From assembly GCA_030066855.1 (NCBI GenBank), contig JASJAU010000037.1:500-64499 (forward strand): a DNA stretch of 64,000 nt. The letters run 5' to 3'. The notes under the pieces were generated by a model. The model had not been told where the DNA came from. It did not search any database and saw nothing but the letters and a program-made list of their open reading frames with translations. A program made the position numbers and the translations under genes. Position 1 is the stretch's first letter. Every line of letters starts with the position of its first letter. This document shows positions 15,631 to 36,016 of the stretch, piece after piece. Source of the DNA: Paracoccaceae bacterium (GTDB lineage Bacteria > Pseudomonadota > Alphaproteobacteria > Rhodobacterales > Rhodobacteraceae).

Positions 15631-15688
15631 CCAAAACGCTTCGAAGCATTTTTCGAGGTCTTTCGAAGGACCTTGAAAGGAGTATGAA

Positions 15689-16435
15689 ATGAACGTCCAA
15701 AGCGCCACGACCGACGAAACCCAAATCCGTATCGACCTGGCTGCCGCGATCCGGCTCGCCTGCCGCGCGGATTGGCACGAAGGGGTCGCCAACCATTTCT
15801 CCGCCGCTGTTTCCGCAGACGGCCGCAAATTCCTGGTCAATCCGCGCTGGGTGCATTGGAGCCGGGTGCGGGCCTCGGACCTCGTCCTCTGCGACGCCGA
15901 CGATCCGAGCACGATGAAGCGGCCCGATGCGCCAGACCCCTCGGCCTGGTCGATCCATTCGGCATTGCACCGGAACCTCCCCCAGGCCCGCGTGGCGCTT
16001 CATATCCATCCGCCCTACGCAACCGCGCTTGCGACGCTGAAAGATCCGACGATTCACCCGATCGATCAAGTCACGGCCCGCTTTTTCAAGCGCCTGGCCT
16101 ATGATCTGAGCTTCGGCGGTATCGCCACCGAGGGCGCCGAGGGCGAGCGCATCGCGGCGTCCATCGGCAACCACACGAGCGTGATGATGCAAAACCATGG
16201 AGTAACAACGCTGGGCGCGACCGTGGCCGAGGCCTTCGACGCCATGTACCACCTCGAGCGGGCCGCGCGGACGATGGTACTGGCCTATTCCACCGGCCAG
16301 CCGCTCGAGATCATGCCGGACGCGCTGGCCGAGATCACCGCAGCCGAGTGGGAGGATTACACCGACTCCCAGTTCGCCCATTTCGCCGAGATGAAACGGG
16401 TGCTCGACAAGGAAGAGCCGGATTACAAAGACTAA
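15689..16435 (+). CDS. Class II aldolase/adducin-family protein
   Basis: 248 aa with a class II aldolase-like pattern (HIHPPYATALA..., MQNHGVTTLGATVAEAF). Confidence 0.78.
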   Translation: MNVQSATTDETQIRIDLAAAIRLACRADWHEGVANHFSAAVSADGRKFLVNPRWVHWSRVRASDLVLCDADDPSTMKRPDAPDPSAWSIHSALHRNLPQARVALHIHPPYATALATLKDPTIHPIDQVTARFFKRLAYDLSFGGIATEGAEGERIAASIGNHTSVMMQNHGVTTLGATVAEAFDAMYHLERAARTMVLAYSTGQPLEIMPDALAEITAAEWEDYTDSQFAHFAEMKRVLDKEEPDYKD

Positions 16436-16519
16436 ACCCTGGGGGCGCCGCCCCCGGACCCCGGAGTAATTCCCCCATGAGGAAGTGCCCGGAACACAAG
16501 ACAGAACGGGGAGCGTACC

Positions 16520-17974: not shown

Positions 17975-18037
17975 TGGACCGAGCGGGCGCGGAGCCCGCC
18001 GCGGCGCGCATCCAATCGGAGTTGAGCTGAAAATCCA

Positions 18038-18069
18038 GGCGCGGGCCGCTGGTCCGCGCCCTTTTGTTG
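18038..18069 (+). terminator. Rho-independent terminator after dihydropyrimidinase
   Basis: 7-bp GC stem GGCGCGG / CCGCGCC with a 9-nt loop, followed by CTTTTGTTG. Confidence 0.6.
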
Positions 18070-18528
18070 CGAATTCACTGCACTTGGGTGGGTTTTCGCC
18101 GATCGGGTCGCCGCGTTCGCTTGCCTCGTTCATATTCCATTCGCAAGTTGGCGTCAGAGCTGGGGACCAACCCCGGCCAGAGGCAGAAAGAGCGAAACAT
18201 GGCAGACATCCTGAAAATGGTCCTGAAAGGGCCGGGCCACCGCCGTCGGGCGCTTACGCTTTGGCAAGCGTGGTGGCGGCGCGCCGTTTGACATGGGCGC
18301 GGGCGGCGGGCGCCGCAGGGGCTGGCGCGAGCGGCTGAACGCACTCTACGGCGGTCGCGCGAAATCGGTCGCGCCAAAGGCGCGTGAGGGCCGGACGCAG
18401 AGTCGGTCGTCTCTGGGCGGAATTGTCAGCATGCTGGAGAACACGCTGGCGGAAGACGTCTTCAGCGAGGAAGACGGCAAACCGGCGAAAGCGCGGAACT
18501 CGCGGCTTTCCTAGGTCCGCTCCTTCAT

Positions 18529-20555: not shown

Positions 20556-20621
20556 GGGGTCCCCTCCTGGTCGTCATTTTGTCTGGGTGACAGGCGCCGC
20601 CTGAGACGCGGCGCCAAGCCG

Positions 20622-21377
<756 letters not shown>

Positions 21378-21389
21378 CTCCGTCCCTCC

Positions 21390-22148
21390 TTAATGCGCCG
21401 CTTCGCCGAGGTACGCTTCCTGCACCTTCGGGTTGCCTTTGATGTTGTCTGGCGTGTCCTCCACCAGCGGCGTGCCCTGCGCCAGAACGGTGATCCGCTC
21501 AGCCAGGCTGAAAACGACGTGCATGTCGTGCTCGATGATGCACATGGTGATGTCGCGCTTTTCGTTGATCTCTTTCAGAAGATCGATCGTGTTGTTGGTG
21601 TCGGCCCGCGCCATGCCGGCGGTGGGCTCGTCCAACAAGAGAAGCCGCGGCTCCTGCACCAGACACATCGCCATTTCAAGGCGGCGCTTGTCGCCCCGGC
21701 TCATCGAGGCCGAATGCATGTCGCGCTTGTCGAGCATGTTGACGTCTTCAAGGATGGCGTCGGCCTTTGCGATCAGCTCCTTCTCGTTGGCGAACTGCTC
21801 ATAGGCGTGCATTCGGAAAGAGCCGTCGCGCTTGGCGAAACACGGGATCAGGATGTTTTCGAGAACGGTGAGGTCCCCGAAGATTTCAGGTGTCTGGAAC
21901 ACCCGGGATATCCCCATCTGGTTGATCTCGTGCGGCTTGCGGCCGAGAACCGATTGCCCGCCGAACATCACCGAACCCGTGTCCGGGATTAGCTTGCCGA
22001 CAAGGCAGTTGAGCAGGGTCGATTTGCCCGCGCCGTTCGGCCCGATGATCGCGTGGACGGTGTTCTCCGCCACCGAGAGGTTCACGTCACCGAGCGCCTG
22101 CAGACCGCCGAAGCGCTTGTTGACGCCTTTGACTTCAAGAATTCCCAT
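21390..22148 (-). CDS. ABC transporter ATP-binding protein (LivG-like)
   Basis: Walker A GPNGAGKST, Walker B LLLDEPTAGM and a BCA C-terminal region. Confidence 0.92.
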   Translation of the reverse strand: MGILEVKGVNKRFGGLQALGDVNLSVAENTVHAIIGPNGAGKSTLLNCLVGKLIPDTGSVMFGGQSVLGRKPHEINQMGISRVFQTPEIFGDLTVLENILIPCFAKRDGSFRMHAYEQFANEKELIAKADAILEDVNMLDKRDMHSASMSRGDKRRLEMAMCLVQEPRLLLLDEPTAGMARADTNNTIDLLKEINEKRDITMCIIEHDMHVVFSLAERITVLAQGTPLVEDTPDNIKGNPKVQEAYLGEAAH

Positions 22149-22160
22149 GGGTCCTTCTCC

Positions 22161-23360
22161 TTATTCCGCTGGCGTCTTGGCAGCTGCGTCTTCGGCCTCC
22201 TGGGCGCGCTTTCCACGCCCGAAGAGCCGTCCGATCCGCTGACCGCCTTCCACAAGGCCGCCGGGCAGGAATATGACGACCGCCATGAACACGATGCCGA
22301 GCGTCAGGTGCCAGCCCTTGCCGATGAACGGATGGATGATGAAGACAATGAAGTCTTCGATTCCGTCAGGCATAAACGCGAACCATTGGTGCAGGATGCC
22401 GTCGTTAATCTTCGACAGGATGTTTTCCATGTACTTGATCATGCCCGCGCCCAAAACCGGTCCAATGAGCGTGCCGACGCCGCCGAGGATGGCCATCAGA
22501 ACGACTTCGCCCGACGCGGTCCAGAACATACGCTCAGGTCCAACCTGGGTGTCCATCGCGACCATCAGACCACCGGCAAGACCGGCGTACATGCCCGAGA
22601 TAACGAAAGCGGCGAGGGTATAAGGCTTGGAGTTAAGGCCCGTGTAGTTCATCCGCTGCTGGTTTGACTTAACCGCGCGCAGCATCATGCCGAAAGGCGA
22701 GCGGAAGATGCGGATCGACACGTAGAACGAGATCAGCATCACGATCGCGGCGATGTAGTAGCCCATGTTGAACGTCCAAAGCCAGTCGCCAGCGCTCAAC
22801 TCGAAGCTGGACCTCATGTCGAGGCCGAAGAGGTTTGCGCGGCCGATCTCGCCATCTCCCAGGTTGGAAAGAAGCGGACGGTCTGTCGGCTTGATCTGCA
22901 AGCCCGTCTCGCCTCCCGTGATCGGCGTTAGCACCGAGTAGGCGAGAGAATAGGACATCTGCGCGAAAGCCAGCGTCAGGATCGAGAAGTAGATGCCCGA
23001 CCGGCGAAGCGAGATAAAGCCAACGACAACCGCGAAGAGCCCAGCGAAGATGATCGACATGATGATCGCCGGGATCACGTTCAGTGTAACCAGCTTCATC
23101 ATCCAGATCGCCGCATAGGATCCGACACCCAGGAAGGCCGCATGACCGAATGAAAGGTAGCCGGTCAGGCCGAAGAGGATGTTGAAACCGATTGCAAAGA
23201 TCCCGAAGATCACAAAGCGCTGCATCAGGTCCGGATAGCCGGCATTGAACTGCGCCAGCTGGCTGCCTTCTGGAAAGGGGTTCAGGAAGAACGGCGCCAG
23301 AATGGTAAGAACCGCGACGACGATCAGAAGGGTTGAATCGTTCTTTTTGAGACCAAGCAT
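22161..23360 (-). CDS. Branched-chain-type ABC permease (LivM-like)
   Basis: Multi-TM ORF of 399 aa with a LivM-like core ([16 protein letters not shown]). Confidence 0.9.
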
Positions 23361-23363
23361 GTC

Positions 23364-24395
23364 TTATTCCTCCATCACGCCTTTGCGCCCCATCAGGCCG
23401 CGCGGCCGTGTGAGCAGGATGACAATGGCGACCAGGTAGATGATGATCTGGTTGATGCCGGGGATGATGTCGATGACAGCGCCCATGGAGGCAAAGCTCT
23501 CGAGCACACCAAGTAGGAACCCTGCAAGAACGGCACCGGGCAGCGAGCCCATGCCGCCCACGACAACCACGACGAAGCTCAGGACAAGGAAGTCCATACC
23601 CATGTGATAATTGGGAGAGTTGATCGGCGTGTACATGACCCCGGCAAGACCCGCCACACAGGCGGCGATGGCGAACATCACGGTGAAGCGCTTATCGATG
23701 TTGATTCCCAAAAGGCCAACGGTCTCGCGGTCCGCCATGCCGGCCCGGACAACCATGCCGAAGGTGGTGAATTGCAAGAAGGCAAACACACCTGCGATCA
23801 CGATCATCGCGAACGCGAAGTAGATCAGACGCCAGTAGGGATAGATGATGGTGAATGGATCGAAGCCCAGAAGAACGCCGAAGTCGAACGAACCGGTGAA
23901 GGCTTCCGGTGCCGGAGTCGGGATCGGGTTCGCCCCGTAGAAGTACTTGATGATTTCCTGAAGCACGATGGCAAGGCCGAAGGTTACGAGGATCTGATCC
24001 GCGTGGGGGCGCTTGTAGAAGTGCTTGATCAATCCGCGCTCCATGGCAAATCCAACAAGCACCATGATCGGGATCGAGAAGAGAATGGCGAGCGGCACAG
24101 ACCAGTCGATGATGCCCTGTCCCGCTGCCTCACCGAACCATTCGTAGACGTAGGGAACATCGACCTTCATCGGGTTCCCGAGAAAGTCGGTCCGCGTCTC
24201 GTCCACAACTTCGTGGCTCAGGCTCAGAATACGCTGGAGAGTAACGGCGCAAAACGCGCCAATCATAAACAGTGCCCCGTGGGCGAAGTTCACAACGCCG
24301 AGCGTACCGAAGATCAGAGTCAGACCGAGCGCGATGAGCGCATAGGCCGAGCCCTTATCCAGGCCGTTCAGAACTTGCAGAATGATGGCTTCCAT
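23364..24395 (-). CDS. Branched-chain-type ABC permease (LivH-like)
   Basis: MEAIILQVLNGLDKGSAYALIALGLTLIFGTLGVVNFAHG is the canonical LivH N-terminus. Confidence 0.9.
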   Translation of the reverse strand: MEAIILQVLNGLDKGSAYALIALGLTLIFGTLGVVNFAHGALFMIGAFCAVTLQRILSLSHEVVDETRTDFLGNPMKVDVPYVYEWFGEAAGQGIIDWSVPLAILFSIPIMVLVGFAMERGLIKHFYKRPHADQILVTFGLAIVLQEIIKYFYGANPIPTPAPEAFTGSFDFGVLLGFDPFTIIYPYWRLIYFAFAMIVIAGVFAFLQFTTFGMVVRAGMADRETVGLLGINIDKRFTVMFAIAACVAGLAGVMYTPINSPNYHMGMDFLVLSFVVVVVGGMGSLPGAVLAGFLLGVLESFASMGAVIDIIPGINQIIIYLVAIVILLTRPRGLMGRKGVMEE

Positions 24396-24421
24396 GTCCC
24401 TTCCTCCGCGGGGTTCGGGTA

Positions 24422-24445
24422 AGCCACGCCCCTCGAGGCGTGGCT
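24422..24445 (-). promoter_or_regulatory. Intercistronic stem-loop between the binding-protein and permease genes
   Basis: Perfect 9-bp stem AGCCACGCC / GGCGTGGCT with a 6-nt loop and no T-tract. It resembles the mRNA-stabilising hairpins that follow SBP genes. Confidence 0.4.
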
Positions 24446-24514
24446 AGATTTTCGAGCGGGGTGCGCGTTAGGCGCGTGATAACCGTTTGGAAATCGCCCT
24501 CGCTTTGATCCGGA

Positions 24515-25879
24515 TCATGCTCCGGGATTGCAGGCTCCGAGGGTCGCTTCCGCGCCGCCCATTTGCGGATGGTCGGGTGCGTAGGTGACCTGCTCGACCG
24601 GAGTGACTTCGACGATCTCGAGTAGGTCGTAGGGACCATCGGGGTTTTCTTTCCCCTTCACGACAAGCACGTCCTTGAAGCACTGGTGATCGGCGCCGCG
24701 ATACAGCGTCTTGCCGTTGCCCAGCCCGTCGAACTCGAAGTCTTCGAGTGCTTCGGCAACTGCGCACGGGTTGAACGAGCCAGCCCGGTTCACAGCGTCT
24801 GCGTAGAGAAGCGTCTGACAGTACACCGTGTGCGCGGCCTGCGACGGCGGGAAGCCGTACTTGGTGCCGAACGAGCGAGTGAACGCCTGCGATCCCTCGT
24901 CGGGCAGTGACCAGTGCCAGTTCGTCGAACCAAAGATGCCCTTAACGTTTTCACCGGCACCACGTGCCATCAAACGCGAGTAGAGCGGAACGACGATCTG
25001 GAAGTCCTTACCGTTGGCCTGGGCTTCGCGAAGACCGAACTGAACGGCACTGGTCAGCGAGTTCACCATGTTGCCGCCGTAGTGGTTCAGAACAAGCACG
25101 TCCGCACCCGACTGCAAGACAGGCGTGATGTAGGACGAGAAGTCGGTCTGCGTCAGCGGGGTTTTCACCGCGTTGACAGTTTCCCAGCCGATCGCTTCGG
25201 TCGCTTGGGTTACAGCTTCTTCCGTCGTGTAACCCCAGTTATAGTCGGCCGTCAGGTGATAGGCCTTCCGGTCGGCGCCATAGGCATTGGCAAGCACGGG
25301 AGCCAGCGCCGCGCCAGACATGTACGAGTTGAAGAAGTGGCGGAAGCCATTGGCCTTCCGGTCCTTACCCGTGGTGTCGTTCGAGTGCGTAAGGCCAGCC
25401 ATGAAGATGACGCCCGCCTCCTGGCAGAGCGCTTGCACCGCAACAGCCACACCGGAGGATGAACCGCCGGTGATCATGATAGCGCCGTCTTTCTCGATCA
25501 TCGACCGGGCCGAAGCTCGGGCCGCATCTGATTTAGTCTGCGTGTCGCCAGTCACATATTCGATCTTCTTGCCCAAGATGCCTGTGCCGTCGAGCGTCTT
25601 GGACGAGAATGTATTGATCATCCCGCCGTCGCCGCCGCCGTTCAGATGCTCGACCGCAAGCTCGTAAGCACGCAGCTCGTCCGCGCCCTCATCGGCGTAG
25701 GGGCCTGTCTGAGGCACGTTGAAGCCAAGCGTCACTGTGTCGCCTTCAGGCGCGTTCGTGAAACCTGTGTGCCCGCCGGCCCAGACCGCGCCGGTGAAGA
25801 TCGTCGGCGTCGCAAGCGCCGCGCCTGCTGCCGCGCCGGTCTTTAGCGCGCCGCGACGGGTGAGATTGGATTTAGTCAT
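24515..25879 (-). CDS. Periplasmic substrate-binding protein (type I / Leu-Ile-Val-binding-protein fold) with Tat-type signal
   Basis: N-terminus TRRGALKTGAAAGAALATPTIFTGAVWA. 454 aa, first gene of the ABC-acs operon. Confidence 0.85.
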   Translation of the reverse strand: MTKSNLTRRGALKTGAAAGAALATPTIFTGAVWAGGHTGFTNAPEGDTVTLGFNVPQTGPYADEGADELRAYELAVEHLNGGGDGGMINTFSSKTLDGTGILGKKIEYVTGDTQTKSDAARASARSMIEKDGAIMITGGSSSGVAVAVQALCQEAGVIFMAGLTHSNDTTGKDRKANGFRHFFNSYMSGAALAPVLANAYGADRKAYHLTADYNWGYTTEEAVTQATEAIGWETVNAVKTPLTQTDFSSYITPVLQSGADVLVLNHYGGNMVNSLTSAVQFGLREAQANGKDFQIVVPLYSRLMARGAGENVKGIFGSTNWHWSLPDEGSQAFTRSFGTKYGFPPSQAAHTVYCQTLLYADAVNRAGSFNPCAVAEALEDFEFDGLGNGKTLYRGADHQCFKDVLVVKGKENPDGPYDLLEIVEVTPVEQVTYAPDHPQMGGAEATLGACNPGA

Positions 25880-26013: not shown

Positions 26014-26061
26014 GAACTTTTTTGTAAACACTTACACAATGCGTATAGTATTTTTGTAAAG
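26014..26061. promoter_or_regulatory. Two direct TTTTGTAAA boxes (candidate RamB/ScfR operator)
   Basis: GAACTTTTTTGTAAA (26014-26028) and AGTATTTTTGTAAAG (26048-26061) lie 32 bp apart. An inverted TTTTACAA copy sits at 25949-25956. All are in the divergent promoter between the SBP gene and the ScfR-type regulator. Confidence 0.4.
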
Positions 26062-26111: not shown

Positions 26112-27431
26112 ATGCAGAGACCCGCTCTAACCGGCTCCCGCATCCGCCGCCACCGGCTGGACCGGGGCATCCGGCAGGCCGATCTGGCGCGGGGCTGCGA
26201 TATCTCGCCGAGCTACCTCAATCTGATCGAACATAACCGTCGCAGAATCGGCGGCGCGCTGCTGAACCGCATCGCCCGGGTGCTCGACATGGACCCGGCC
26301 GCGTTGAGCGAGGGGGCTGAGAGCGCGCTGGTCGAGGCGTTGGAGGCCGCTGCGGCGGATGCCGGCGAACAGTCCGACAGTTTGGAGCGAGCCGAAGAGT
26401 TCGCTGGACGCTTTCCGGGCTGGGCGCGGCTTCTCGAGGATCAGTCGCGTCGCATCGAACGGCTTGAGCGGGTCGTGCAGGTCCTGACCGACCGGCTGAC
26501 CCACGACCCCCAGCTTTCGGCTTCGCTGCACGACGTCCTGACTACCGTCACAGCGATCCGGTCCACCAGCGGCATTCTCGCCGCCGAGGACGAGATCGAG
26601 CCGCAATGGCGCGCCCGATTCCACCGCAACCTTTACGAGGACAGCCAGCGTCTGGCCGGGTCCGCCGAGGCGCTGGTGAGCTTCCTGGACGCCGGCGGCG
26701 ATGCCGCCCGGACCGTCGTTTTGCCTCACGATGAGGTCGAGGCATGGCTCGCCGATCAGGACTGGACGGTCGACGCGCTCGAGCGGGGCGCGGCGGACGC
26801 GGATGATATTGCGGCGCAGGAGGCGCGCCTTACCACACCGGCGGCGAAGGACTTGGCGAAGAGATACCTGCGCCGCTACCGAGCGGATGCGGATCGGGTT
26901 CCCCAAAACCGGTTGATCGAAGCTCTCAGTGCAGGCTTCATGGATCCCGCCGCGCTTGCCGGGCACTTCGGCGTCGAGTTCGACATGATCCTGAGGCGGC
27001 TCGCCTCGCTGCCAGGGGAGGCCTTCGAGAACGGCATCTCGCCCGGGCTGGTCCTCTGCGACGGGTCCGGCACGCTGACCTTCCGCAAAGCGGTTCCGGG
27101 CTTCGAGCCACCTAGATTCGGCGCGGCCTGTCCTCTCTGGCCGCTCTACCAGGCGCTGCAGCGGCCATCCCAGCCGATCCGCGCCCATGTCGTTCTACCA
27201 GGCCGCGACACCTGGCGTTTCACCGTACACGCCATCGCCACGTCACGCTACGAGGCTGGATTCAACCGTCCGCCTGTCGTCGAGGCGACCATGTTGGTCG
27301 TTCCGGTTCTGGGCGAGGCGGCCGCGTCCGACGACGTGCTGACCATTGGCACCTCGTGTCGGATTTGCGCTGTCGCCGACTGCGCGGCCCGGCGCGAGCC
27401 GTCGATTCTCAGCCTCGCTCAGACCGCGTGA
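26112..27431 (+). CDS. ScfR/RamB-family regulator (XRE HTH + ImmA-like + DUF2083)
   Basis: N-terminal HTH (LTGSRIRRHRLDRGIRQADLARGCDISPSYLNLIEHNRR), a long C-terminal domain and a terminal Cys cluster CRICAVADCAARREPS. Confidence 0.82.
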   Translation: MQRPALTGSRIRRHRLDRGIRQADLARGCDISPSYLNLIEHNRRRIGGALLNRIARVLDMDPAALSEGAESALVEALEAAAADAGEQSDSLERAEEFAGRFPGWARLLEDQSRRIERLERVVQVLTDRLTHDPQLSASLHDVLTTVTAIRSTSGILAAEDEIEPQWRARFHRNLYEDSQRLAGSAEALVSFLDAGGDAARTVVLPHDEVEAWLADQDWTVDALERGAADADDIAAQEARLTTPAAKDLAKRYLRRYRADADRVPQNRLIEALSAGFMDPAALAGHFGVEFDMILRRLASLPGEAFENGISPGLVLCDGSGTLTFRKAVPGFEPPRFGAACPLWPLYQALQRPSQPIRAHVVLPGRDTWRFTVHAIATSRYEAGFNRPPVVEATMLVVPVLGEAAASDDVLTIGTSCRICAVADCAARREPSILSLAQTA

Positions 27432-27534
27432 AGCGCCCAGTTTCCGCCGCTTTCACTTGCCATCCGATGCGAGACGGGAGCGCCAGATGGGCGAACCCTA
27501 TGGCCCATCCTTGGTCTAAACGGTTCACAAGAGC

Positions 27535-28146
27535 ATGCGAGTTCAGGATTGCTGCCTGAGCTTCGCATTGCTCTGCACGCCAGTTGCCGAGGTCACCGCG
27601 GCAATCGGCGGCATCATGCGGGCGTCCGAGAACGGCGCGACGGTTACGGTCGGCGAGACGCCGCCGCCGTTCATCGCGGCCTCGCGGTCTCGCGGCTACA
27701 TCTCACACCGCAGGGGCGTGCTCGTCTCGCGCCCCGCAGGCGCCGAAGTCGTCTTGGTGGAGTTTAGCCATCTCCAGAACGTCCTCACGCCGCTCTCCAT
27801 GACCTTGCCCGAGGTCGAATTCATTGGCTTCCGCTCGAACTGGGAGACCGGGCACCGGTGGCACAATGAACTGAGCGTCCACCTCGGCGGAGAAATGGTC
27901 CGGCAGATCGACCTCGACGAAGGAATGCGCCGCTCCGGCTTGAGCTTGGTCGAATGGGGCGAGCCCAGGTCATTCGAAGCAACGGCCTCCTACTCGTTAG
28001 GCGACATGAGCCAGCGCCTCACGCGGCGCCACCTCCAGGATGCCCCCCGGCGCTGTTGGCTCGATGTCGACCGAGCGGTCGTGCTCGGGATGCGGAGAGG
28101 GCGAGACGGACACCGAAGAGGTTCTGGCGCAGGAGGCCTACCTTGA
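27535..28146 (+). CDS. Hypothetical protein (start and 3' end uncertain)
   Basis: High GC3 over about the first 150 codons and no family recognised. GC3 falls in the last ~20 codons while another frame looks coding. Alternative start at 27616. Confidence 0.35.
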   Translation: MRVQDCCLSFALLCTPVAEVTAAIGGIMRASENGATVTVGETPPPFIAASRSRGYISHRRGVLVSRPAGAEVVLVEFSHLQNVLTPLSMTLPEVEFIGFRSNWETGHRWHNELSVHLGGEMVRQIDLDEGMRRSGLSLVEWGEPRSFEATASYSLGDMSQRLTRRHLQDAPRRCWLDVDRAVVLGMRRGRDGHRRGSGAGGLP

Positions 28147-28808
28147 GGCCATCGAGGCGCTTAGGCAATTCTGAAGTCGGTTCGGGCAAGCGATGCAACG
28201 CGTGTTGCCTAACACCGAGAATACGAAAAGGCCTATGACAAATGGATGAGCAAGCCGGAGCGGCCCGGAGGTTTCGACCCTACGATCTATCTCGGCTGGA
28301 ACGTTCAAAGGATCGACCGTTCCGGGCCGGTTCGCATCCTGACTTTCTTTCACGAGGAGCGCGCTCTAGTGCGAGCTTGGAGAGCTGAACTTTCGGCTGA
28401 CGCAGACGGTGGTCGATCAGATCGACGGCGTGTCGCAGAGTCTGAGCGAACTTGATTTTGTGGTTACGCATGCCGTCGCGGCACTGAAGGCGGGTCGCTA
28501 CACCGACGCGGAAAGCTCCCCCGCGGGGCGTTTTCGCGTCGGTCTGCCGGTACATCGGTATTCGTTTCGACGAGGGTGGGCCGATCCTGACGTGGAAAGC
28601 AGCCAAAAGAAGCGCGGCGCGGGAATTGGTCAAGGGGCGCGAGGAACTCGCTCACGCGATCAATTCCGACGTCACCTCCGACCTCACGGTCTTTCACATC
28701 GCCACGCTATACACCCGGGACTGACAGCATCCCCTTTTTGACAGTGCCGCGCCGGCGCGCGATAGTCTCCCCAAAGGCCGAAAACGGCGCATAGGGAGGG
28801 GATCGGCG

Positions 28809-29177
28809 ATGGGCGGACATGTCCTGCTGATCGAGGATGAACCGAATATTATCGAAGCGATCCGCTTTATCCTGTCGCGCGACGGGTGGCGGGTTGATAT
28901 CCACTCGGACGGGCGGACGGCGGTCGATGCTGTCCGCGACCGCGCGCCGGATCTGGTCATCCTCGACGTCATGCTGCCCAACCGCTCGGGCTATGACATT
29001 TTGAACGACGTCCGAAAAGACCCCGGCACCAGCGACATGCCGGTGCTCATGCTGACCGCGCGCGGGCAGAAGAAGGACCGCGAGTTGGCCGAGAAGCTGG
29101 GCGTCAGCAAGTTCATGACAAAACCCTTCTCGAACGGCGAGGTCCTCTCGACCGTGCGGGAGCTCGTGGCGCGGTGA
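28809..29177 (+). CDS. Single-domain (CheY-like) response regulator
   Basis: 122 aa consisting of a receiver only. Conserved residues: LLIEDE, DLVILDVMLP (phospho-Asp), LMLTA, KPF. Confidence 0.9.
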   Translation: MGGHVLLIEDEPNIIEAIRFILSRDGWRVDIHSDGRTAVDAVRDRAPDLVILDVMLPNRSGYDILNDVRKDPGTSDMPVLMLTARGQKKDRELAEKLGVSKFMTKPFSNGEVLSTVRELVAR

Positions 29178-29467
29178 ACCAGCCCGACGAGCCGCTTTTC
29201 CTCGCGCGCCAGTCCTATCGCCGCCGGCGGCTGGGCGACGCTGCGCGGCTCCTACCGCTTTTGGGCTTCGTGCTCCTCTGCCTTCCGGTTCTTTGGGCGA
29301 ACGAGGCGCGAACGGCCAGCGGCCTGGTGTACCTGTTCGTTCTCTGGGGGCTTCTCATTCTGGCAGTGGCGCTGATTTCGCCGCGTCTTGAGCAGAACGA
29401 GCCGGACTTAGGCGAAACGGACGGCGCCGGAGACGCAGGTGCCGGTGGACCGGCAGCGAGCGAATGA
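29174..29467 (+). CDS. Small two-TM membrane protein
   Basis: GTG start overlaps the regulator's stop and its own stop overlaps the kinase ATG (ATGA). Two hydrophobic helices (LLPLLGFVLLCLPVLW and LVYLFVLWGLLILAVALI). Confidence 0.55.
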   Translation: MNQPDEPLFLARQSYRRRRLGDAARLLPLLGFVLLCLPVLWANEARTASGLVYLFVLWGLLILAVALISPRLEQNEPDLGETDGAGDAGAGGPAASE

Positions 29468-32148
29468 TCAGCTTCAACTCGCTCGCCGTCGTCGCGCTTC
29501 TTTACGTCGTGCTTCTCTTCGCGGTAGCGTTTTGGGCCGACAAAAGGGCGGCACGGGGGCAGGTGGGCTGGCTCAGAAGCCCTTGGATCTACACCCTCTC
29601 GCTTTCGATCTACTGCACGGCCTGGACGTTCTATGGCGCCGTCGGCTACGCCGCCCGGTCGGGGCTCGAATTCGTTACGATCTACCTCGGCCCGACCCTA
29701 GTGATGATTGGCTGGTGGGCGCTGCTCAGGCGCCTTGTCCGCATCGGCCGGACGCAGCGAATCACCTCGATCGCCGACATGGTGTCTTCGCGATACGGCA
29801 AGTCCAATCTGCTCGGCGTTCTCGTCACGGTTCTGGCCGTCGTGGGCATCACCCCGTACATCGCGCTTCAGCTTCAATCGGTGACGCTCAGTTTCGCCGT
29901 GTTCACGCCAGGCAGCGCGTCGGACTCCGTCAGCCTGATATCGACCGCATTCTGGGTGGCCGCCGGGCTCGCCGCATTCACGATCATCTTCGGCACCCGA
30001 AACCTGAACGTGAATGAGCGGCACCATGGCGTCGTGACCGCTATCGCCGTTGAGGCGGTCGTGAAACTCGTCGCTCTAATCGCCGTCGGTGTCTTCGTGG
30101 TCTACTCGGTCGCGGACGGGCCGACGGATATCCTCGACCGCATCGAAAGCTCTTCGATCAGCGCCTGGGAGCTCCAGCCGGACCGCTGGGTAACCCTGAT
30201 CTTCCTTTCGGCGGCGGCCTTCATCTGCCTGCCGCGCATGTTCCAGGTCATCGTCGTCGAGAATTCGGACGAGCGGCACCTGGCCACGGCCAGTTGGGCT
30301 TTCCCCCTCTATCTTTTTCTGATGAGCCTGTTCGTCGTGCCAATCGCGGTCGTCGGGCTGTCTGTTCTGCCGGAGGGCTCCAACCCCGACCTCTTCGTTC
30401 TCACGCTCCCGATCGCCTTCGACCAGAGCGCGCTGACCACGCTCGCTTTTCTGGGTGGCTTCTCGTCGGCGACGTCCATGGTCATCGTGGCCGCGATTGC
30501 GGTTTCAACCATGGTATCGAACCACATCGTGATGCCGATCTGGCTGAACGCGAGGAAAGGCGGCGCGACCGTGTCGGGCGATGTCCGCGACACCGTGATC
30601 CTCGCAAGGCGGCTGTCGATCGCCGCAGTCTTGGGCCTTGGCTATCTCTACTACCGCCTCTCGGGCGGCGGCGCGGCGCTTGCGGCTATCGGCCTGATCG
30701 CTTTCGTTGGTCTGGCCCAGGTGCTGCCGTCGCTGATCGGTGGCGCGTTCTGGCGCGGCGCCACCCGCGCGGGGGCAGCGGCCGGGCTGATCATCGGCTT
30801 CGCCATCTGGATCTGGACGTCGTTCCTGCCAAGCTTCGGTGAGACCGCGCTGATGTCACCGTCGGTCTACGCCGAAGGCCCGTTCGGCATAGGCGCGCTC
30901 CGCCCTCTGGCGCTTTTCGGCATCGAGGGGCTGGATCCGCTCGTGCATTCCGTCTTCTGGTCGATGCTTCTAAACACCACCGCCTTCGTGACCTTTTCGC
31001 TCCTCAGCTTTCCTTCTCCGCTCGAACGGTTGCAGGGTGCCTTGTTCATCAACATCTTCCGCTATTCCGAGAGCGCCCGCGGCTGGACCGGCGGCGCGGC
31101 CGAGGCGGAGGACCTGCTGATGATGGCGCAGCGGATCATCGGCCCGACTGAGGCGCAGGCCCTCTTCGAGGCGGAGGCGGCTGCCCAAGGCCAGGTCGGC
31201 TACCTGCCGGACGTAACCCCCGATTTCCTAGAGCGGCTCGAGCGCGAGCTAGCGGGGTCGGTCGGCGCCGCGACCGCGCATGCCATGCTCGCGCAAATCA
31301 CGGGCGGCGTTTCGGTCAGTGTCGAAGATTTGATGAAGGTCGCCGACGAAGCTCAGCAAATCCTTGAATATTCCAGCCAGCTCGAAGCGAAGTCGACTGA
31401 ACTTGGCCGCACCGCGCGCCAGCTTCAGGAAGCCAACGAGAAGCTAATGGCGCTTTCGGTTCAAAAGGACGGGTTCCTTAGCCAGATTAGCCACGAGCTG
31501 CGCACGCCCATGACCTCGATCCGCTCGTTCAGCGAGATTCTGATGGGTGGGGAGAGCATGACCGCCGAAGAGCGGCAGAAATACAGCTCGATCATCCATG
31601 ACGAGGCCATTCGGCTCACGCGTCTCCTGGACGACCTTCTCGATCTCAGCGTTCTCGAGAACGGTCAGGTGACGCTCAATCTGGCCGACGACTCGCTGGA
31701 TCGGATCATCACCCGCGCGGTCGCCGCGACCGAGAGACCCAAGGGCGAGCCGGAGATCGCGATCCGGCGCGACAACGGCAGCGAGGGCGTGCCACTTCAC
31801 ACCGACAGCGATCGGCTGGCGCAGGTCTTCATCAACCTGATCGCCAACGCGCAGAAGTATTGCGACGCGGAGCGGCCCGAACTGGCGATTTCGGTGAAGG
31901 ACATAGGCGGCAGGACGGTGGTGGATTTCGTCGACAACGGCTCCGGAATCCCGCAGGCGGCGCAATCGACGATCTTCGAGAAGTTCTCGCGCCTCTCAGA
32001 TGATAAGGCGGCGGGCGGCGCGGGGCTCGGACTTGCTATCTGCCGCGAGGTCATGCTGCGCCTCGGCGGCGCGATCGCTTACCTGCCGGGGCAGGGCGGC
32101 GCGGCCTTCAGGGTGACCCTGCCGGGCCCTAGGGCGCGGGCGGCCTGA
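29464..32148 (+). CDS. Sodium/solute-symporter (SSS/SLC5)-domain-fused sensor histidine kinase (CbrA/CrbS-like architecture, no receiver)
   Basis: About 500 aa of SSS-like TM helices, a linker, the H-box FLSQISHELRTPMTSIRSF, and an ATPase domain (NLIANAQKY and GGAGLGLAICREV). Confidence 0.9.
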   Translation: MISFNSLAVVALLYVVLLFAVAFWADKRAARGQVGWLRSPWIYTLSLSIYCTAWTFYGAVGYAARSGLEFVTIYLGPTLVMIGWWALLRRLVRIGRTQRITSIADMVSSRYGKSNLLGVLVTVLAVVGITPYIALQLQSVTLSFAVFTPGSASDSVSLISTAFWVAAGLAAFTIIFGTRNLNVNERHHGVVTAIAVEAVVKLVALIAVGVFVVYSVADGPTDILDRIESSSISAWELQPDRWVTLIFLSAAAFICLPRMFQVIVVENSDERHLATASWAFPLYLFLMSLFVVPIAVVGLSVLPEGSNPDLFVLTLPIAFDQSALTTLAFLGGFSSATSMVIVAAIAVSTMVSNHIVMPIWLNARKGGATVSGDVRDTVILARRLSIAAVLGLGYLYYRLSGGGAALAAIGLIAFVGLAQVLPSLIGGAFWRGATRAGAAAGLIIGFAIWIWTSFLPSFGETALMSPSVYAEGPFGIGALRPLALFGIEGLDPLVHSVFWSMLLNTTAFVTFSLLSFPSPLERLQGALFINIFRYSESARGWTGGAAEAEDLLMMAQRIIGPTEAQALFEAEAAAQGQVGYLPDVTPDFLERLERELAGSVGAATAHAMLAQITGGVSVSVEDLMKVADEAQQILEYSSQLEAKSTELGRTARQLQEANEKLMALSVQKDGFLSQISHELRTPMTSIRSFSEILMGGESMTAEERQKYSSIIHDEAIRLTRLLDDLLDLSVLENGQVTLNLADDSLDRIITRAVAATERPKGEPEIAIRRDNGSEGVPLHTDSDRLAQVFINLIANAQKYCDAERPELAISVKDIGGRTVVDFVDNGSGIPQAAQSTIFEKFSRLSDDKAAGGAGLGLAICREVMLRLGGAIAYLPGQGGAAFRVTLPGPRARAA

Positions 32149-32210
32149 GCAACTCTTTCGTAAGGAAAATCGGCCAGATACGCGGTATCCAGCCACGCGA
32201 ACCTGCCGCC

Positions 32211-32768
32211 ATGTCCGACACAGATCCTCGAAACGCGCTCCGCCGAATGGTGACCGCCCCGCCGGCGTCGGCGGGCGGGCTTGGCGGCGTGGAGAAGGCG
32301 CTGTCGGTCGAGCTATCGCGCTCGGGCGACGAGCTTTTGGGACTTTCGGTCGAACTTCAGGCGTTCGGTTTGAGCGAGGGGGATGAGCGCTGGGTCGTCG
32401 AGAGCCTGACAGAGGAGGATCTGGTTTATCTCGCAAGCTTCGATGATGGAACGAGCGCGGAGCTTGTGGTGGCGGATCAGGGGCTTCTTTCGGCGCTGAT
32501 CGAGGTTCAAACTTTGGGTCGCGTCACTCCCGGCCAGCCGCCCGCGCGTCCGCCGACCCGAACCGACGGGGTCGTCGCGGCGGATATGATCGACCGCTGG
32601 CTTGTGGATCTCGGAGTTTTGCCGGCGGACGTGAGCGTTGCTCAGGGCATTGTGCGCCAGAACCGAGTGCTTGACCGCCGCTCGGTGGCGATCACGCTCG
32701 ACCCCCGCGCCTACCGGGCCGCGCGGCTGTCGCTGTCCTTCTCTGGGGGGCCAAAACCGGGGTGCTGA
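32211..32768 (+). CDS. FliM-like (CheC-like middle domain) protein, N-terminal ORF of a split gene
   Basis: The pattern LSALIEVQTLGR...PTRTDGVVAADMIDRWL resembles the FliM middle domain. The ORF ends in a G6/A4/G4 homopolymer tract where the next ORF begins in another frame. Confidence 0.45.
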   Translation: MSDTDPRNALRRMVTAPPASAGGLGGVEKALSVELSRSGDELLGLSVELQAFGLSEGDERWVVESLTEEDLVYLASFDDGTSAELVVADQGLLSALIEVQTLGRVTPGQPPARPPTRTDGVVAADMIDRWLVDLGVLPADVSVAQGIVRQNRVLDRRSVAITLDPRAYRAARLSLSFSGGPKPGC

Positions 32769-33289
32769 CCATTGTCGCCCCGGCGCTCGGAGCTCGCGCG
32801 AAGGGGCAGGGCCCGATTGACACAGATCGGCTACGCGCTGCCGTCTTCACGGCGGAGGCGGAGCTTTCCGTGGTGCTGGCCCGGTTCGAGATGCCCTTGG
32901 CCCGCGCCGCGACTCTCAAAGTGGACGATAGGATCGACCTGCCCGGCAACGAGCCGAGCAAGGTCGCGCTTGAAGGCGGAGAGGGGATGCCGGAGCTACC
33001 CGCCACACTGGGTCAGATGAACGGCAAGTGGGCGATCCGCCTGGCGCATGCCGCTGCGGCCCAAGCCGAAGCCATCTCGCCGGTCTTTGCCGATAAGTCG
33101 CCACCTCCTGTCGCCGCCTTAGCAGACCTTCCCGAGACCGCGACCGAACACACCGGGCTCCCTGAACTGCCGGAGTTGCCCGATCTACCAGACCTTCCTG
33201 ATGGGCCAGGACTTCACGGCTTGCCGGAGCTGTCAGATCACCAAACCAGTCTTCCCGATCTCCCGACTCCGGCGAGCGATCCGGCCTAG
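32762..33289 (+). CDS. FliN/SpoA (surface presentation of antigens) domain protein with LP[ED]LP-repeat tail
   Basis: AELSVVLARFEMPLARAATLKVDDRIDLPGN...ATLGQMNGKWAIRL fits the FliN C-terminal beta-rich domain pattern. The tail reads LPELPELPDLPDLPDGPGLHGLPEL...LPDLP. Confidence 0.55.
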   Translation: MLTIVAPALGARAKGQGPIDTDRLRAAVFTAEAELSVVLARFEMPLARAATLKVDDRIDLPGNEPSKVALEGGEGMPELPATLGQMNGKWAIRLAHAAAAQAEAISPVFADKSPPPVAALADLPETATEHTGLPELPELPDLPDLPDGPGLHGLPELSDHQTSLPDLPTPASDPA

Positions 33290-33714
33290 CGCCGCACCTG
33301 ATCGAGTTGCCCCGCAAGGCCGGGCGCGGGATAGCCCGCTTGGTCCAACGCTTTCAGGATCGCCTCGTTTGTCATCTTGCCCGACATCGCCATGGCGAAG
33401 GCCCAAAGGATCGAGGACCGCGTGCCGCTGGCGCAATAGGCGAGCGTTCGGCCCTGATCCGCCGCGATCGCCGCCAGCTGCGCTTCGATGATATCTACGC
33501 TCAGCATGCCGGGCGACAGCGGATTGGCGACAAAGGCGACTCCGGCGGCCCGACACGCTTCGCCCATCGCCGCGCTCGCCAGCTCTTCCGGAACTTCGAT
33601 GTCCGGTCGGTTGCAGATGATCGTCGTCACGCCGCTTTCCGCAAGGCCCGCGACATCATCGGGCGCGATCTGCGGCGAAACGGAGGTCTTCTCGTCCAGG
33701 GCGCGCTCCATCAT
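33286..33714 (-). CDS. TIGR01244/DUF442-family (Blh N-domain-like) sulfur-transferase/phosphatase-like protein
   Basis: VSPQIAPDDVAGLAESGVTTIICNRPD...YCASGTRSS is the DUF442 signature. Confidence 0.78.
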   Translation of the reverse strand: MMERALDEKTSVSPQIAPDDVAGLAESGVTTIICNRPDIEVPEELASAAMGEACRAAGVAFVANPLSPGMLSVDIIEAQLAAIAADQGRTLAYCASGTRSSILWAFAMAMSGKMTNEAILKALDQAGYPAPGLAGQLDQVRR

Positions 33715-33721
33715 CCGGCCC

Positions 33722-34153
33722 TCATGCCGTCGACATCGCGTCGATCCGTGACCGGATTGGCGGGGCGCCATACATGCCGGCCGCCATCGCCGCGAGGAAC
33801 ACCAGACCGCCAGCGCCGCCCCAGGTCAGCGACGCGACTGCGGGGCCGGGGCAGAGGCCCGACAAGCCCCAGCCGGCTCCGAAGAGCGTCGATCCGATCA
33901 CCAGGTTCCAGCCGATCGTCGGTTCCGGACGCGCCGGGAAGTCGCCGCCCAAAAGGGGCGTTCCTCGCGCCGCCGCGACGCGCCAGGCGATCGCCATTGG
34001 CAGGATCGCGCCGCCCATCACGAAGGCGAGCGTCGGGTCCCAGTCGCCGAACACGTCAAGCCACCCGATCACCTTCCGCGTGTCGGTCATGCCCGAGATC
34101 AACAGCCCCACGCCGAAGACGCCGCCGGCCAGAAACGCGTAAACCGCACGCAT
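33722..34153 (-). CDS. YeeE/YedE-family sulfur-compound transporter half (DUF6691-like)
   Basis: MRAVYAFLAGGVFGVGLLISGMTDTRKVIGWLD..., four TM helices. Confidence 0.78.
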   Translation of the reverse strand: MRAVYAFLAGGVFGVGLLISGMTDTRKVIGWLDVFGDWDPTLAFVMGGAILPMAIAWRVAAARGTPLLGGDFPARPEPTIGWNLVIGSTLFGAGWGLSGLCPGPAVASLTWGGAGGLVFLAAMAAGMYGAPPIRSRIDAMSTA

Positions 34154-34578
34154 CACACGCCTCCCAGAAGAGCGCGGGCCAGCACCACGGTCAGGCCGCC
34201 CGCGCCGATGTAAAACACCGTCGCCACGATCCCGCGCAAGCTGAGCCGCGAGATGCCGCAAACGCCGTGCCCCGAGGTGCAGCCGTTCGCCAGCCGTGTG
34301 CCCACGCCAACGCAAAGCCCGGCTAGCGCCACGATGACGTGGTTTCCTGTCAGATGGGTATCCGACCCGCCCATGGCGAGCGCCGCGACACCGGGAAAGA
34401 CCACAAGTCCGGCGAGAAACGCCAGCCGTTCATTGGCGGTCTCGCGCCCGCTTCCATCCACAAGCGCTCCGAGGATGCCCGAGGCGCCCATCACTCTGCC
34501 GTTGACGAGCAGGTAAAGCGCCGCCGCGCCACCGATAATGACCCCGCCGATCAGGCCGAGGACCCAGTCCATTTCCAT
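34153..34578 (-). CDS. YeeE/YedE-family sulfur-compound transporter half
   Basis: GGVIIGGAAALYLLVNGRVMGASGI and LANGCTSGHGVCG (conserved Cys motif). Confidence 0.8.
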   Translation of the reverse strand: MEMDWVLGLIGGVIIGGAAALYLLVNGRVMGASGILGALVDGSGRETANERLAFLAGLVVFPGVAALAMGGSDTHLTGNHVIVALAGLCVGVGTRLANGCTSGHGVCGISRLSLRGIVATVFYIGAGGLTVVLARALLGGV

Positions 34579-34588
34579 ATGGCTTCCT

Positions 34589-35452
34589 TCAGAGCTTGTT
34601 CACGGGCACCTTGAGAAAGACATCGCCCTTCTCGTCCGGCTCCGGCATGTTGCCCGCCCGCATGTTGACCTGCAGCGACGGCACGATCAGCTTCGGCATG
34701 TCCAGCGTAGCGTCCCGAGCCTCGCGCATCTCTACGAACTCCTCTCGGCTCTTGCCGCCGCCCACGTGGACGTTCTTGGCCTTCTGCTCTCCCACGGTCG
34801 ATTCCCAGGCGTAGACGTCGCGCCCCGGCGCCTTGTAATCGTGGCCGACGAAGATGCGCGTCTCGTCCGGCAGGGCGAGGATCGCTTGCACGCTGTCGAA
34901 CATGATATCGGCCGAGCCTCCGGGGAAGTCGCAGCGCGCCGTGCCGAAATCCGGCATGAAAAGCGTGTCGCCCACGAATGCCGCGTCGCCGATGACATAG
35001 GTCATGCAGGCGGGCGTGTGGCCGGGCGTGTGCAGCACGTCGCCCCGGATCTGGCCGACATGAAAACTGTCGCCGTCCTCGAAAAGCGCGTCGAACTGGC
35101 TGCCGTCGCGCTGGAACTCGGTGCCCTCGTTGAAGATCTTGCCGAAGGTGTCCTGCACGACGGTGATGTTCCTGCCGATTCCGATCTTGCCGCCGAGCTG
35201 CTCCTGCAAATAGGGCGCGGCGGAAAGGTGGTCGGCGTGGACATGGGTCTCGAGCACCCAATCGACAACAAGCCCCTCGGCGCGAACGTAGGCGATGATC
35301 TCATCGGCGGACGAGGTGTCGGTGCGCCCGGCCGCGTAGTCGAAGTCGAGTACGCTGTCCACGATTGCGCAATGCGTCCCCTCGGGATCCCGCACGACGT
35401 ACGAGATTGTGTTGGTCGCTTCATCGAAGAAGGCCTTGACGAACGGTTTCAT
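34589..35452 (-). CDS. MBL-fold persulfide dioxygenase-like hydrolase (Blh/ETHE1 type)
   Basis: MKPFVKAFFDEATNTISYVV...ETHVHADHLSAA...HTPGHTPACM. The longer track ORF (to 35905) is an upstream extension. Confidence 0.87.
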   Translation of the reverse strand: MKPFVKAFFDEATNTISYVVRDPEGTHCAIVDSVLDFDYAAGRTDTSSADEIIAYVRAEGLVVDWVLETHVHADHLSAAPYLQEQLGGKIGIGRNITVVQDTFGKIFNEGTEFQRDGSQFDALFEDGDSFHVGQIRGDVLHTPGHTPACMTYVIGDAAFVGDTLFMPDFGTARCDFPGGSADIMFDSVQAILALPDETRIFVGHDYKAPGRDVYAWESTVGEQKAKNVHVGGGKSREEFVEMREARDATLDMPKLIVPSLQVNMRAGNMPEPDEKGDVFLKVPVNKL

Positions 35453-35496
35453 TCTAACCTCCAATAGTCGCAGTCCAGATATACGGACATTTGAAC

Positions 35497-35516
35497 ATAT
35501 TTCAATATTGATATAT
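35497..35516. promoter_or_regulatory. 20-bp AT-rich palindrome in the bigR/PDO divergent promoter (candidate operator)
   Basis: ATATtTCAATATTGAtATAT has a perfect 10-bp core TCAATATTGA. Four more pairs flank one mismatched pair. Confidence 0.5.
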
Positions 35517-35524
35517 TTTATCCC

Positions 35525-35878
35525 ATGACCGTGCAAATCGTGAGCAAGATGGAAGACTCTTTCAAGGACATGCATGCGGCGATGGCCGAATCCGCCGACG
35601 AGGCGGCGGGTTATCTGCGCGCCCTGTCGAACCCGTCTCGCCTGCTCCTTTTGTGCCAGTTGGTTGAGTGCGAACGCAGCGTGGGCGAACTGGAGGAGGC
35701 GCTGGGCCTCGGCCAAGCCTATGTATCCCAGCAATTGGCGCGTCTGAGAAGCGAAGGCCTGGTCAAAGCCGCGCGCGACGGGCGAATCGTCCGCTACAGT
35801 CTTGCCGATCCGAGGGTCGTTCCGGTTCTTCAGGTGCTGTACGAGCAATTCTGCGGCCCGGCGCGCGCCGCACAATAA
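35525..35878 (+). CDS. bigR: ArsR/SmtB-family repressor, BigR/SqrR-like persulfide sensor
   Basis: LRALSNPSRLLLLCQL...VSQQLARLRSEGLV...EQFCGP. The two Cys residues are positioned as in BigR/SqrR. Divergent from the PDO-YeeE-DUF442 operon. Confidence 0.82.
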   Translation: MTVQIVSKMEDSFKDMHAAMAESADEAAGYLRALSNPSRLLLLCQLVECERSVGELEEALGLGQAYVSQQLARLRSEGLVKAARDGRIVRYSLADPRVVPVLQVLYEQFCGPARAAQ

Positions 35879-36016
35879 GCGGGCATACGCCCAAAAGGCG
35901 GTCAATCCACAAGTTTATCCCCGAGAATTGGTGGGCGTTAACACGCCCGGCGCCACGGCTGTGGTATGGTGTGTCATCAAACAGTCCGCGCAGACGGGCC
36001 AGACGGGAGGTTTTAT

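Follow-up and report, generated by a model that had tools for sequence, protein, structure and literature searches.

Does a histidine kinase that carries a transporter domain signal to the flagellar switch protein encoded next to it, or are the two genes only neighbours? The question is raised by a 64,000-nucleotide stretch of DNA (the window) from a metagenome-assembled genome (MAG) of a Paracoccaceae bacterium. There, genes for a stand-alone receiver, a small membrane hairpin and a transporter-fused kinase overlap one another, and a gene of the FliM type starts at 32211, 62 bp past the kinase stop and on the same strand. A first-pass annotation, made from the sequence alone, laid out the genes in this way and proposed that the receiver switches the FliM-like product by protein-protein contact. 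We favour a different answer, with a probability of about 0.6: the locus holds two units that are adjacent by ancestral synteny and are probably regulated and used separately. Their separability is suggested by the kinase operon's own promoter, a CtrA-like box in front of fliM, ten related loci that lack fliM, differing evolutionary rates, and a synteny that reaches beyond both units.

Two probably separate units

Close relatives of the kinase are encoded in at least 596 species-representative genomes. We compared the loci of the best 80, all from Rhodobacterales, and the counts out of 80 given throughout refer to these kinase-anchored loci. The receiver and the open reading frame (ORF) with two transmembrane (TM) helices were each present in 78 loci, and a ScfR/RamB-like regulator lay upstream in 77, with the order ScfR-receiver-2TM-kinase seen in about 78. 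The fliM gene followed the kinase in 70 (~ 87%), and three look-ups anchored on FliM (in Silicimonas, Sulfitobacter and Roseobacter) all showed the same arrangement. Synteny of fliM with the kinase operon across Rhodobacterales, which the first-pass annotation had left as a check, was thus found. The arrangement is far from chance and recurs in the best 80 of at least 596 related genomes; judged from these loci, the combination of kinase operon and fliM is an ancient, order-wide arrangement and not a rare one. The sulfur and fatty-acid genes that flank fliM are syntenic too: a BLH gene was found downstream in 50/80 loci, YeeE or metallo-beta-lactamase genes in 33–37, and a FadJ-like gene in 34. 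The whole neighbourhood is therefore conserved as a block, which makes the adjacency of kinase and fliM weak evidence of function.

The two units also occur apart. In ten of the 80, the receiver, the hairpin ORF, the kinase and ScfR (the last absent only in L012) are retained, with no trace of fliM within 3 kb. In two Cognatiyoonia MAGs of this group the BLH gene abuts the kinase, and a DUF2799 gene in convergent orientation begins 4 nt past the kinase stop among the closest relatives of the window. The receiver of the fliM-less loci was 65–81% identical to the window copy, at the top of the 50–83% range observed across loci, and its catalytic residues were intact in the three such loci that were aligned. 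Conservation of this kind in the absence of fliM speaks against FliM as the receiver's target. The units differ in rate as well. The kinase was 65–77% identical over its full length among the 80 loci, as opposed to ~ 25% for FliM, and the ratio of non-synonymous to synonymous substitution rates (dN/dS) was 0.03–0.08 for the kinase and 0.14–0.35 for FliM, most pairs being saturated in dS.

The receiver-hairpin-kinase operon would be transcribed from its own conserved promoter of the sigma-70 type. The candidate sequence in the window (TTGACA-17-GATAGT, 28738–28766, plus strand) lies 43 bp upstream of the receiver gene, and most of the 60 loci inspected have kept the pattern TTGACA-N17-[G/A]ATAGT ahead of the receiver gene, followed by a strong GGGAGGGG ribosome-binding site. 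The fliM gene would instead be driven by a CtrA-type promoter in the spacer that follows the kinase. Upstream of the window fliM, at 32149–32165 on the plus strand, stands GCAACTCTTTCGTAAGG, a degenerate copy of a [T/G]NAA-N7-GTAACC box. A [T/G]NAA-N7-GTAAC(C) box occurred within 150 nt upstream of fliM in 37/67 loci, compared with 1% of random windows, and its geometry is that of the CtrA site TTAA-N7-TTAA(C). The strict CtrA box (TTAA-N7-TTAA, at most one mismatch) was found in just 5/68 kinase–fliM spacers and was replaced for counting by the empirically conserved [T/G]NAA-N7-GTAAC box. Geometry and the published CtrA dependence of related fliM genes, described below, make CtrA the probable binder.

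The gap between kinase and fliM is usually 20–150 nt across loci. One MAG departs from this, with ~ 550–590 nt that include a 234-aa ORF between the kinase stop and fliM (L030, 8703–9293).

The receiver-hairpin-kinase operon

The first gene of the operon (28809–29177, plus strand) encodes a single-domain response regulator of 122 aa, in which PF00072 was the sole Pfam domain (89.6 bits), in agreement with its earlier description as a bare receiver. Asp53 is the phospho-acceptor; Glu9/Asp10, Thr83 and Lys105 are also present, and these residues were invariant in 12 orthologues. The label CheY-like fared less well. The best solved relatives were the YycF and PhoB receivers (E ~ 1e-21 to 1e-24), followed by the stand-alone receiver RR468 (E ~ 1e-19 to 1e-20), whereas CheY entries matched more weakly (E ~ 1e-13). 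The protein thus resembles receivers of the OmpR/PhoB type and RR468 more than CheY. As it carries no output domain, the receiver must act via protein contacts.

The second gene (29174–29467, plus strand) encodes a 97-aa membrane hairpin that is translationally coupled on both sides: a GTGA at 29174–29177 joins its start to the stop of the receiver ORF, and an ATGA at 29464–29467 joins its stop to the start of the kinase ORF, as first annotated. Its helices span about residues 26–41 and 51–68, with a 9-residue loop and Arg-rich flanks. Neither a Pfam family nor a DUF485/YjcH signal was detected in it. The yjcH-actP analogy drawn in the first-pass annotation was accordingly rejected, and cbrX-cbrA, from a homologous kinase family, is the closer precedent. 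As described in a 2026 structure paper (PMC13022988), CbrX is a two-helix hairpin of ~ 58 aa, translationally coupled to cbrA, that packs against TM3 and TM8 of the CbrA SLC5 domain. Compared with this published description, the 97-aa protein is a likely CbrX analogue by topology and translational coupling, and it may pack against and stabilise the SLC5 domain as CbrX does.

The third gene (29464–32148, plus strand) encodes a sensor histidine kinase of 894 aa with an SLC5-like 13-TM domain (about residues 1–520), a helical linker, HisKA and HATPase_c. The kinase core matched PF00512 (62.7 bits) and PF02518 (77.2 bits), and the H-box SHELRTPMTSI and the ATPase domain are as originally noted; within the H-box, the SHELRTP motif that contains His677 was invariant in 19 orthologues. 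Neither a PF00072 receiver nor a PAS domain was found in the kinase. Residues 3–536 matched the SLC5-STAC structure of Pseudomonas putida CbrA (PDB 10ED) with E = 1.8e-71 in a single-sequence phmmer search and E = 1.1e-88 in a profile search; the alignment spans the whole membrane domain. On this homology we place the kinase in the SLC5(/STAC) transceptor family of CbrA, CrbS and RpuS. The closest solved relative of the kinase core was HK853 (E ~ 5e-39).

The likeness to CbrX-CbrA/CbrB of Pseudomonas is the most extensive. In both systems a 13-TM SLC5-like domain, homologous over its full length, is fused to a HisKA-HATPase core, and a gene for a short hairpin of two membrane helices lies upstream of the kinase gene and overlaps it. 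Unlike CbrA, the window kinase has no PAS domain and no STAC domain detectable by sequence; the hairpin has 97 aa instead of ~ 58. CbrB is an NtrC-type regulator with its own promoter, whereas the window operon itself encodes the regulator, as a bare receiver ahead of the hairpin and the kinase. The CbrXA lineage belongs to Pseudomonadaceae and the window system to Rhodobacterales.

CrbS/CrbR and RpuS/RpuR of Vibrio, Pseudomonas and Sinorhizobium, which control acs/actP and mctP, are likewise transporter-fused kinase systems tied to monocarboxylate use, and the window system similarly adjoins an operon containing acs and a regulator of the acyl-CoA type. CrbS, a hybrid kinase, contains a receiver, which the window kinase lacks, and CrbR and RpuR, like CbrB, carry DNA-binding domains, in contrast to the PF00072-only regulator encoded in the window operon. 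HK853-RR468 of Thermotoga maritima resembles the window pair in its kinase core and stand-alone receiver, a likeness generic to the HisKA family; the HK853 sensor is small and periplasmic, while that of the window kinase is a transporter domain. CheY and Caulobacter Cle are also single-domain receivers, and they act by binding FliM, the mechanism suggested in the first-pass annotation. The window receiver differs from them in being encoded in a kinase operon, not a che operon, and in being closer to OmpR-type receivers than to CheY.

A full-length FliM split by a frameshift

The FliM-type gene is split in the window. Its 5′ part (32211–32768, plus strand; 185 aa) comprises the N-terminal peptide (NALRRM) and a CheC-like middle domain and corresponds to positions 2–189 of the family hidden Markov model (HMM). 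The 3′ part (32747–33289, plus strand; annotated ORF 32762–33289, 175 aa) holds a SpoA/FliN-type domain and a Pro-rich LPDLP tail and corresponds to HMM positions 184–350. The 175-aa ORF matched PF01052 (FliMN_C) at 24.7 bits, just above the cut-off of 23.8, and the 185-aa ORF matched no Pfam family, PF02154 included, at E ≤ 1. Word-indexed homologue searches with either half returned self matches alone. When HMMER was run exhaustively, the 185-aa ORF gave 663 relatives, nearly all of 320–420 aa, to whose first ~ 190 residues it aligned. In 67/80 loci the kinase is followed by a single ORF of 300–460 aa. The halves meet at a G6 homopolymer (32745–32750, plus strand), where the addition of one G restores a 359-aa ORF that matched HMM positions 2–350 of 357 with 229.7 bits; the repaired junction reads SGGAKTGVLTIVAP, against the family consensus GAKxGxxxLxLP.

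PF01052 was the sole family matched at E ≤ 0.01 by 61 orthologues, all of which matched it (best E 8.7e-13), and the orthologue profile matched Salmonella FliM (E = 9e-10) and a FliM-FliN fusion (E = 5e-14). An AlphaFold2 model of the Boseongicola orthologue reached a predicted local distance difference test (pLDDT) score of 97 across the middle domain; over ~ 290 columns it aligned with the FliM chains in the C-ring of Salmonella (E ~ 1e-13), and it matched FliM middle domains at template-modelling (TM) scores of 0.67–0.72. For the 185-aa half from the window (pLDDT 86, predicted TM-score 0.80), the top Foldseek matches were the FliM middle domains of T. maritima, Salmonella and Vibrio (TM-scores 0.6–0.69). 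The split gene is a genuine full-length FliM, with N-terminal peptide, CheC-like middle domain and SpoA domain, and not merely FliN-like, which corrects the earlier FliM/FliN-like label. A type III secretion SctQ protein was rejected, the best profile and fold matches being to FliM, middle domain included.

Two sequence motifs characterise enteric FliM, the N-terminal CheY-docking peptide LSQxEIDxLL and the GGXG motif. The N-terminal peptide of the Rhodobacterales family, [S/T]xLRRK[A/L]xAG, does not match the former, and QTxGxV takes the place of FGGDG in the alignment to Salmonella FliM. A variable linker separates the conserved N-terminal peptide from the middle domain, the same layout as that of a CheY-docking peptide. 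At the other end of the protein, the C-terminal tail of Rhodobacterales FliM (33100–33289 in the window) is of low complexity, fast-evolving and rich in LPDLP/LPELP repeats, with a predicted confidence below 50.

Programmed frameshifting was rejected because all 67 full-length orthologues from the loci are single ORFs. The lesion in the window MAG is either an assembly error or early pseudogenisation. That the gene is a real pseudogene, in a lineage shedding it, has a chance somewhat short of even. Besides the frameshift itself, the closest kinase relatives (L001, L003, L008 and L011) have no fliM, and the repaired protein scored 229.7 bits, at the bottom of a family range with a median of 334. 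It also carries G239D at a 99%-conserved Gly, plus R274W, and the upstream box has GTAAGG in place of GTAACC. On the other side stands the nature of the lesion: one indel only, in a homopolymer, in a MAG, with both halves otherwise open and aligning end to end with the family model. The six deviations counted at 27 conserved columns also fall inside the family range of 0–12.

The orphan fliM of Rhodobacterales

A fliM gene away from the flagellar cluster has been described before in this order. CtrA dependence is documented in R. sphaeroides for ‘fliM and fliG ... located elsewhere in chromosome I’ (PMC7277832), and Dshi_1409 of D. shibae (349 aa) is down in a ctrA mutant and is co-regulated and co-induced with the flagellar genes (PMC4046655, PMC6473078). 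The flagellar cluster of P. inhibens is also without fliM. The Fla2 fliM of R. sphaeroides and Dshi_1409 are each a single ~ 350-aa FliM gene outside the flagellar cluster, annotated as hypothetical or FliM/FliN-family, and both belong to the CtrA-dependent flagellar regulon; the window family shares their size, their orphan status and a CtrA-like box. As part of the two-unit reading, and at the probability given for it as a whole, we take the window gene to be the already recognised orphan fliM of the ancestral Rhodobacterales flagellum. For the kinase and receiver, no characterisation as a two-component system was found in the literature searched.

No other flagellar gene and no che gene was found among the ~ 37 window ORFs scanned with Pfam, which included most of the long non-overlapping ones; the absence of further flagellar genes had been correctly noted before. 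NCBI product names in use here are ‘sensor histidine kinase’, ‘hypothetical protein’ and ‘FliM/FliN family flagellar motor switch protein’.

Could the receiver act on FliM?

Several results weigh against two separately used units, and some of them favour the alternative considered in this section. No intrinsic terminator was found between kinase and fliM, and therefore read-through co-transcription is possible. Dshi_1409 and R. sphaeroides fliM are probable orthologues of the window family, but may or may not adjoin this kinase; the D. shibae FliM protein was not found by cluster look-up. As for the kinase, PF00474 (SSF) was matched neither by the full protein at E ≤ 1 nor by residues 1–529 at E ≤ 10, so that the SSS/SLC5 domain of the first-pass annotation stands by its homology to CbrA and not by membership of that family. 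The alignment with 10ED ends where the membrane domain ends, residues 501–679 are without a Pfam match, and sequence comparison did not confirm a STAC domain; an all-helical segment of ~ 70 aa (AEDLLMMAQR...AHAMLAQI) would be compatible with one. Finally, both the ligand and the receiver partner in the scheme set out below are guesses, a short-chain carboxylate being the most likely ligand.

A further observation concerns strains reported to lack the ancestral flagellar cluster. Table S1 of Tomasch et al. 2025 lists no flagellar gene cluster for Boseongicola aestuarii CECT 8489 and Ruegeria meonggei CECT 8411, and scores Nereida ignava for fla3 only, a horizontally acquired type. All three strains keep an intact fliM beside the kinase, each with the upstream box: B. 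aestuarii at 8714–9862 of L002 (382 aa), R. meonggei at 8758–9858 of L065 (366 aa) and N. ignava at 8772–10040 of L079 (422 aa). For the fliM pair of B. aestuarii and its closest relative, L084, dS was 0.48 and dN/dS was 0.15 overall and 0.06 in the middle domain. This is the only informative fliM pair, as those of Ruegeria and most others are saturated in dS. The value of 0.15 implies that purifying selection acted on fliM for most of the time since the two diverged, and therefore that the loss of the flagellum was very recent or that FliM does something else. Such constraint is unexpected for a purely flagellar gene.

Under the rival proposal, the phosphorylated receiver binds the adjacent FliM, for example at its [S/T]xLRRK peptide, and the transporter-kinase either tunes flagellar rotation by nutrient or controls a FliM that serves as a flagellum-independent scaffold. 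The same-strand adjacency of the genes across the order (70/80 kinase-anchored and 3/3 FliM-anchored loci), the lack of an output domain in the receiver, the docking-like layout of the conserved FliM peptide, the purifying selection in B. aestuarii and the missing terminator are all compatible with it. A precedent lies in non-chemotaxis CheY-like proteins that act on FliM in Caulobacter (PMC5677366). A flagellum-independent role would explain an intact, selected fliM in strains reported to lack the flagellar cluster. Yet the receiver persists, well conserved, where fliM is absent, a CtrA-like box stands between kinase and fliM, and in D. shibae as in R. sphaeroides the regulation of fliM goes together with that of the flagellar genes. 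The receiver is also nearer to the OmpR/PhoB type than to CheY, the adjacency is shared by the whole syntenic neighbourhood, and the absence of flagellar clusters is taken from a published table. We therefore regard as unlikely both this proposal and its stronger form, in which kinase and bare receiver give FliM a chemotaxis-independent input set by carboxylate supply through the Rhodobacterales-specific [S/T]xLRRK peptide and FliM has gained a role outside the flagellum.

Carboxylate context and the output of the receiver

Upstream of the kinase operon lies an operon for an ATP-binding cassette (ABC) transporter and acetyl-CoA synthetase (18597–25879, minus strand), as had been noted. It comprises acs (18597–20555; ACAS_N and AMP-binding) and a five-gene transporter (20622–25879) with a periplasmic binding protein (24515–25879; Peripla_BP_6), two permeases (BPD_transp_2) and two ATPases (ABC_tran). 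Among relatives, the binding protein was found in 52/80 loci and the permeases in 47–49, at 60–92% identity where listed. The regulator gene that is divergent from this operon (26112–27431, plus strand) encodes an XRE helix-turn-helix and a ScfRs C-terminal domain (PF01381, PF09856, partial match to NF038139 RamB). It is the ScfR/RamB-like gene that stands upstream of the receiver, on the same strand and typically ~ 100 nt away, in 77/80 loci, in keeping with the carboxylate context first seen in the ABC-acs operon. The divergent intergenic region contains two TTTTTGTAAA boxes, 32 bp apart (26021–26028 and 26053–26060); the 32-bp spacing recurs in 6/73 loci, against a background of 0.1%. The paired TTTTTGTAAA boxes resemble operators of the ScfR family and may belong to this regulator.

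In the window MAG, and there uniquely, the spacer between the ScfR-like gene and the receiver gene is 1.38 kb long (27432–28808), in place of ~ 100 nt in relatives. A 203-aa ORF within it (27535–28146) has no Pfam match and no counterpart in the 80 loci. No notable repeats were seen in the spacer, and neither it nor the surrounding 25.8–33.8 kb region gave an Rfam match.

In other bacteria, acs is a target of CrbS/R and a pyruvate symporter is one of RpuS/R. These precedents, the adjacent ScfR-like gene divergent from ABC-acs and the paired TTTTTGTAAA boxes make a short-chain carboxylate the best guess for the ligand. They also suggest a second partner for the receiver: it could modulate the ScfR-like regulator or another transcription factor, such that carboxylate sensing by the SLC5 domain and acyl-CoA sensing by ScfR jointly control ABC-acs. 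This would follow the logic of CrbS/R with a split output and would be one possible form of the output step of the two-unit scheme. The position of ScfR directly upstream of the receiver and its divergence from ABC-acs, with the operator-like boxes between, fit such a role, as does the control of acs by CrbS/R elsewhere. As reported by Kremer et al. 2023, the ScfR-like gene Pden_1785 is clustered with a two-component system in Paracoccus, a link not pursued there and of which we found no other mention in the literature searched. The proposal is nevertheless drawn purely from gene context: an interaction between receiver and ScfR is not known in this family, the region upstream of the receiver operon showed no box of the ScfR type, and in the window the long spacer parts the two genes. 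We consider it quite improbable.

Returning to two separate units, the following scheme would account for the kinase operon. The SLC5-type membrane domain, accompanied by its hairpin, would bind and perhaps transport a small organic solute. His677 would then autophosphorylate and pass the phosphoryl group to Asp53 of the receiver, which would act on a protein partner; the product of the neighbouring ScfR-like gene and proteins encoded elsewhere in the genome are candidates.

Other features of the window

The genes convergent to fliM form a sulfur cluster (33286–35905, minus strand, plus 35525–35878) that encodes a BLH-type sulfurtransferase, two YeeE/YedE-like membrane proteins, a protein of the metallo-beta-lactamase fold and an ArsR-type regulator, the last present in 10/80 loci only. 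The left end of the window (1154–3097) codes for another sensor kinase, which is of the HWE/HisKA_2 type and unrelated to the first. An 884-aa ORF (15479–18133, minus strand) has no Pfam match, runs antisense to three plus-strand genes (the aldolase, amidohydrolase and peptidase M20 region) and is a typical high-GC shadow ORF, not a gene. After ~ 40 kb, the G + C content drops from 0.63–0.68 to 0.55–0.60 (window ~ 40000–64000), which may mark a genomic island or mean that the MAG contig is chimeric. The genes in this part encode a CitMHS transporter with TrkA_C, a LysR regulator, TRAP DctM/DctP components, and a molybdenum hydroxylase with its FAD (flavin adenine dinucleotide) subunit.

Implications

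The components of the locus are of known kinds: kinases of the SLC5/STAC family, a CbrX-type peptide and the orphan fliM of Rhodobacterales. What is new is the lack of a PAS domain, a bare receiver as the first gene of the operon, the conserved pairing with ScfR, and the adjacency of fliM together with its persistence in strains reported to lack the flagellar cluster. The evidence shows no new signalling mechanism; a genetic test in a model roseobacter would be worthwhile.

At least 596 species-representative genomes encode a close relative of the kinase, and many of them belong to a group that is abundant in the ocean. The locus adds an architecture without DNA-binding output to the CbrA/CrbS/RpuS transceptor family and points to the CbrX-type hairpin as a general companion of such kinases. 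If the receiver did act on FliM, metabolism would feed directly into the flagellar switch and FliM would have a further function, which would matter for the choice that roseobacters make on algal exudates, to swim or to stick. If instead the units are separate, as we favour, the annotation is corrected, with a split fliM whose ‘hypothetical’ part is the FliM middle domain; the orphan fliM locus and its CtrA-like box are pinned down; and a genetic target beside acs is flagged.

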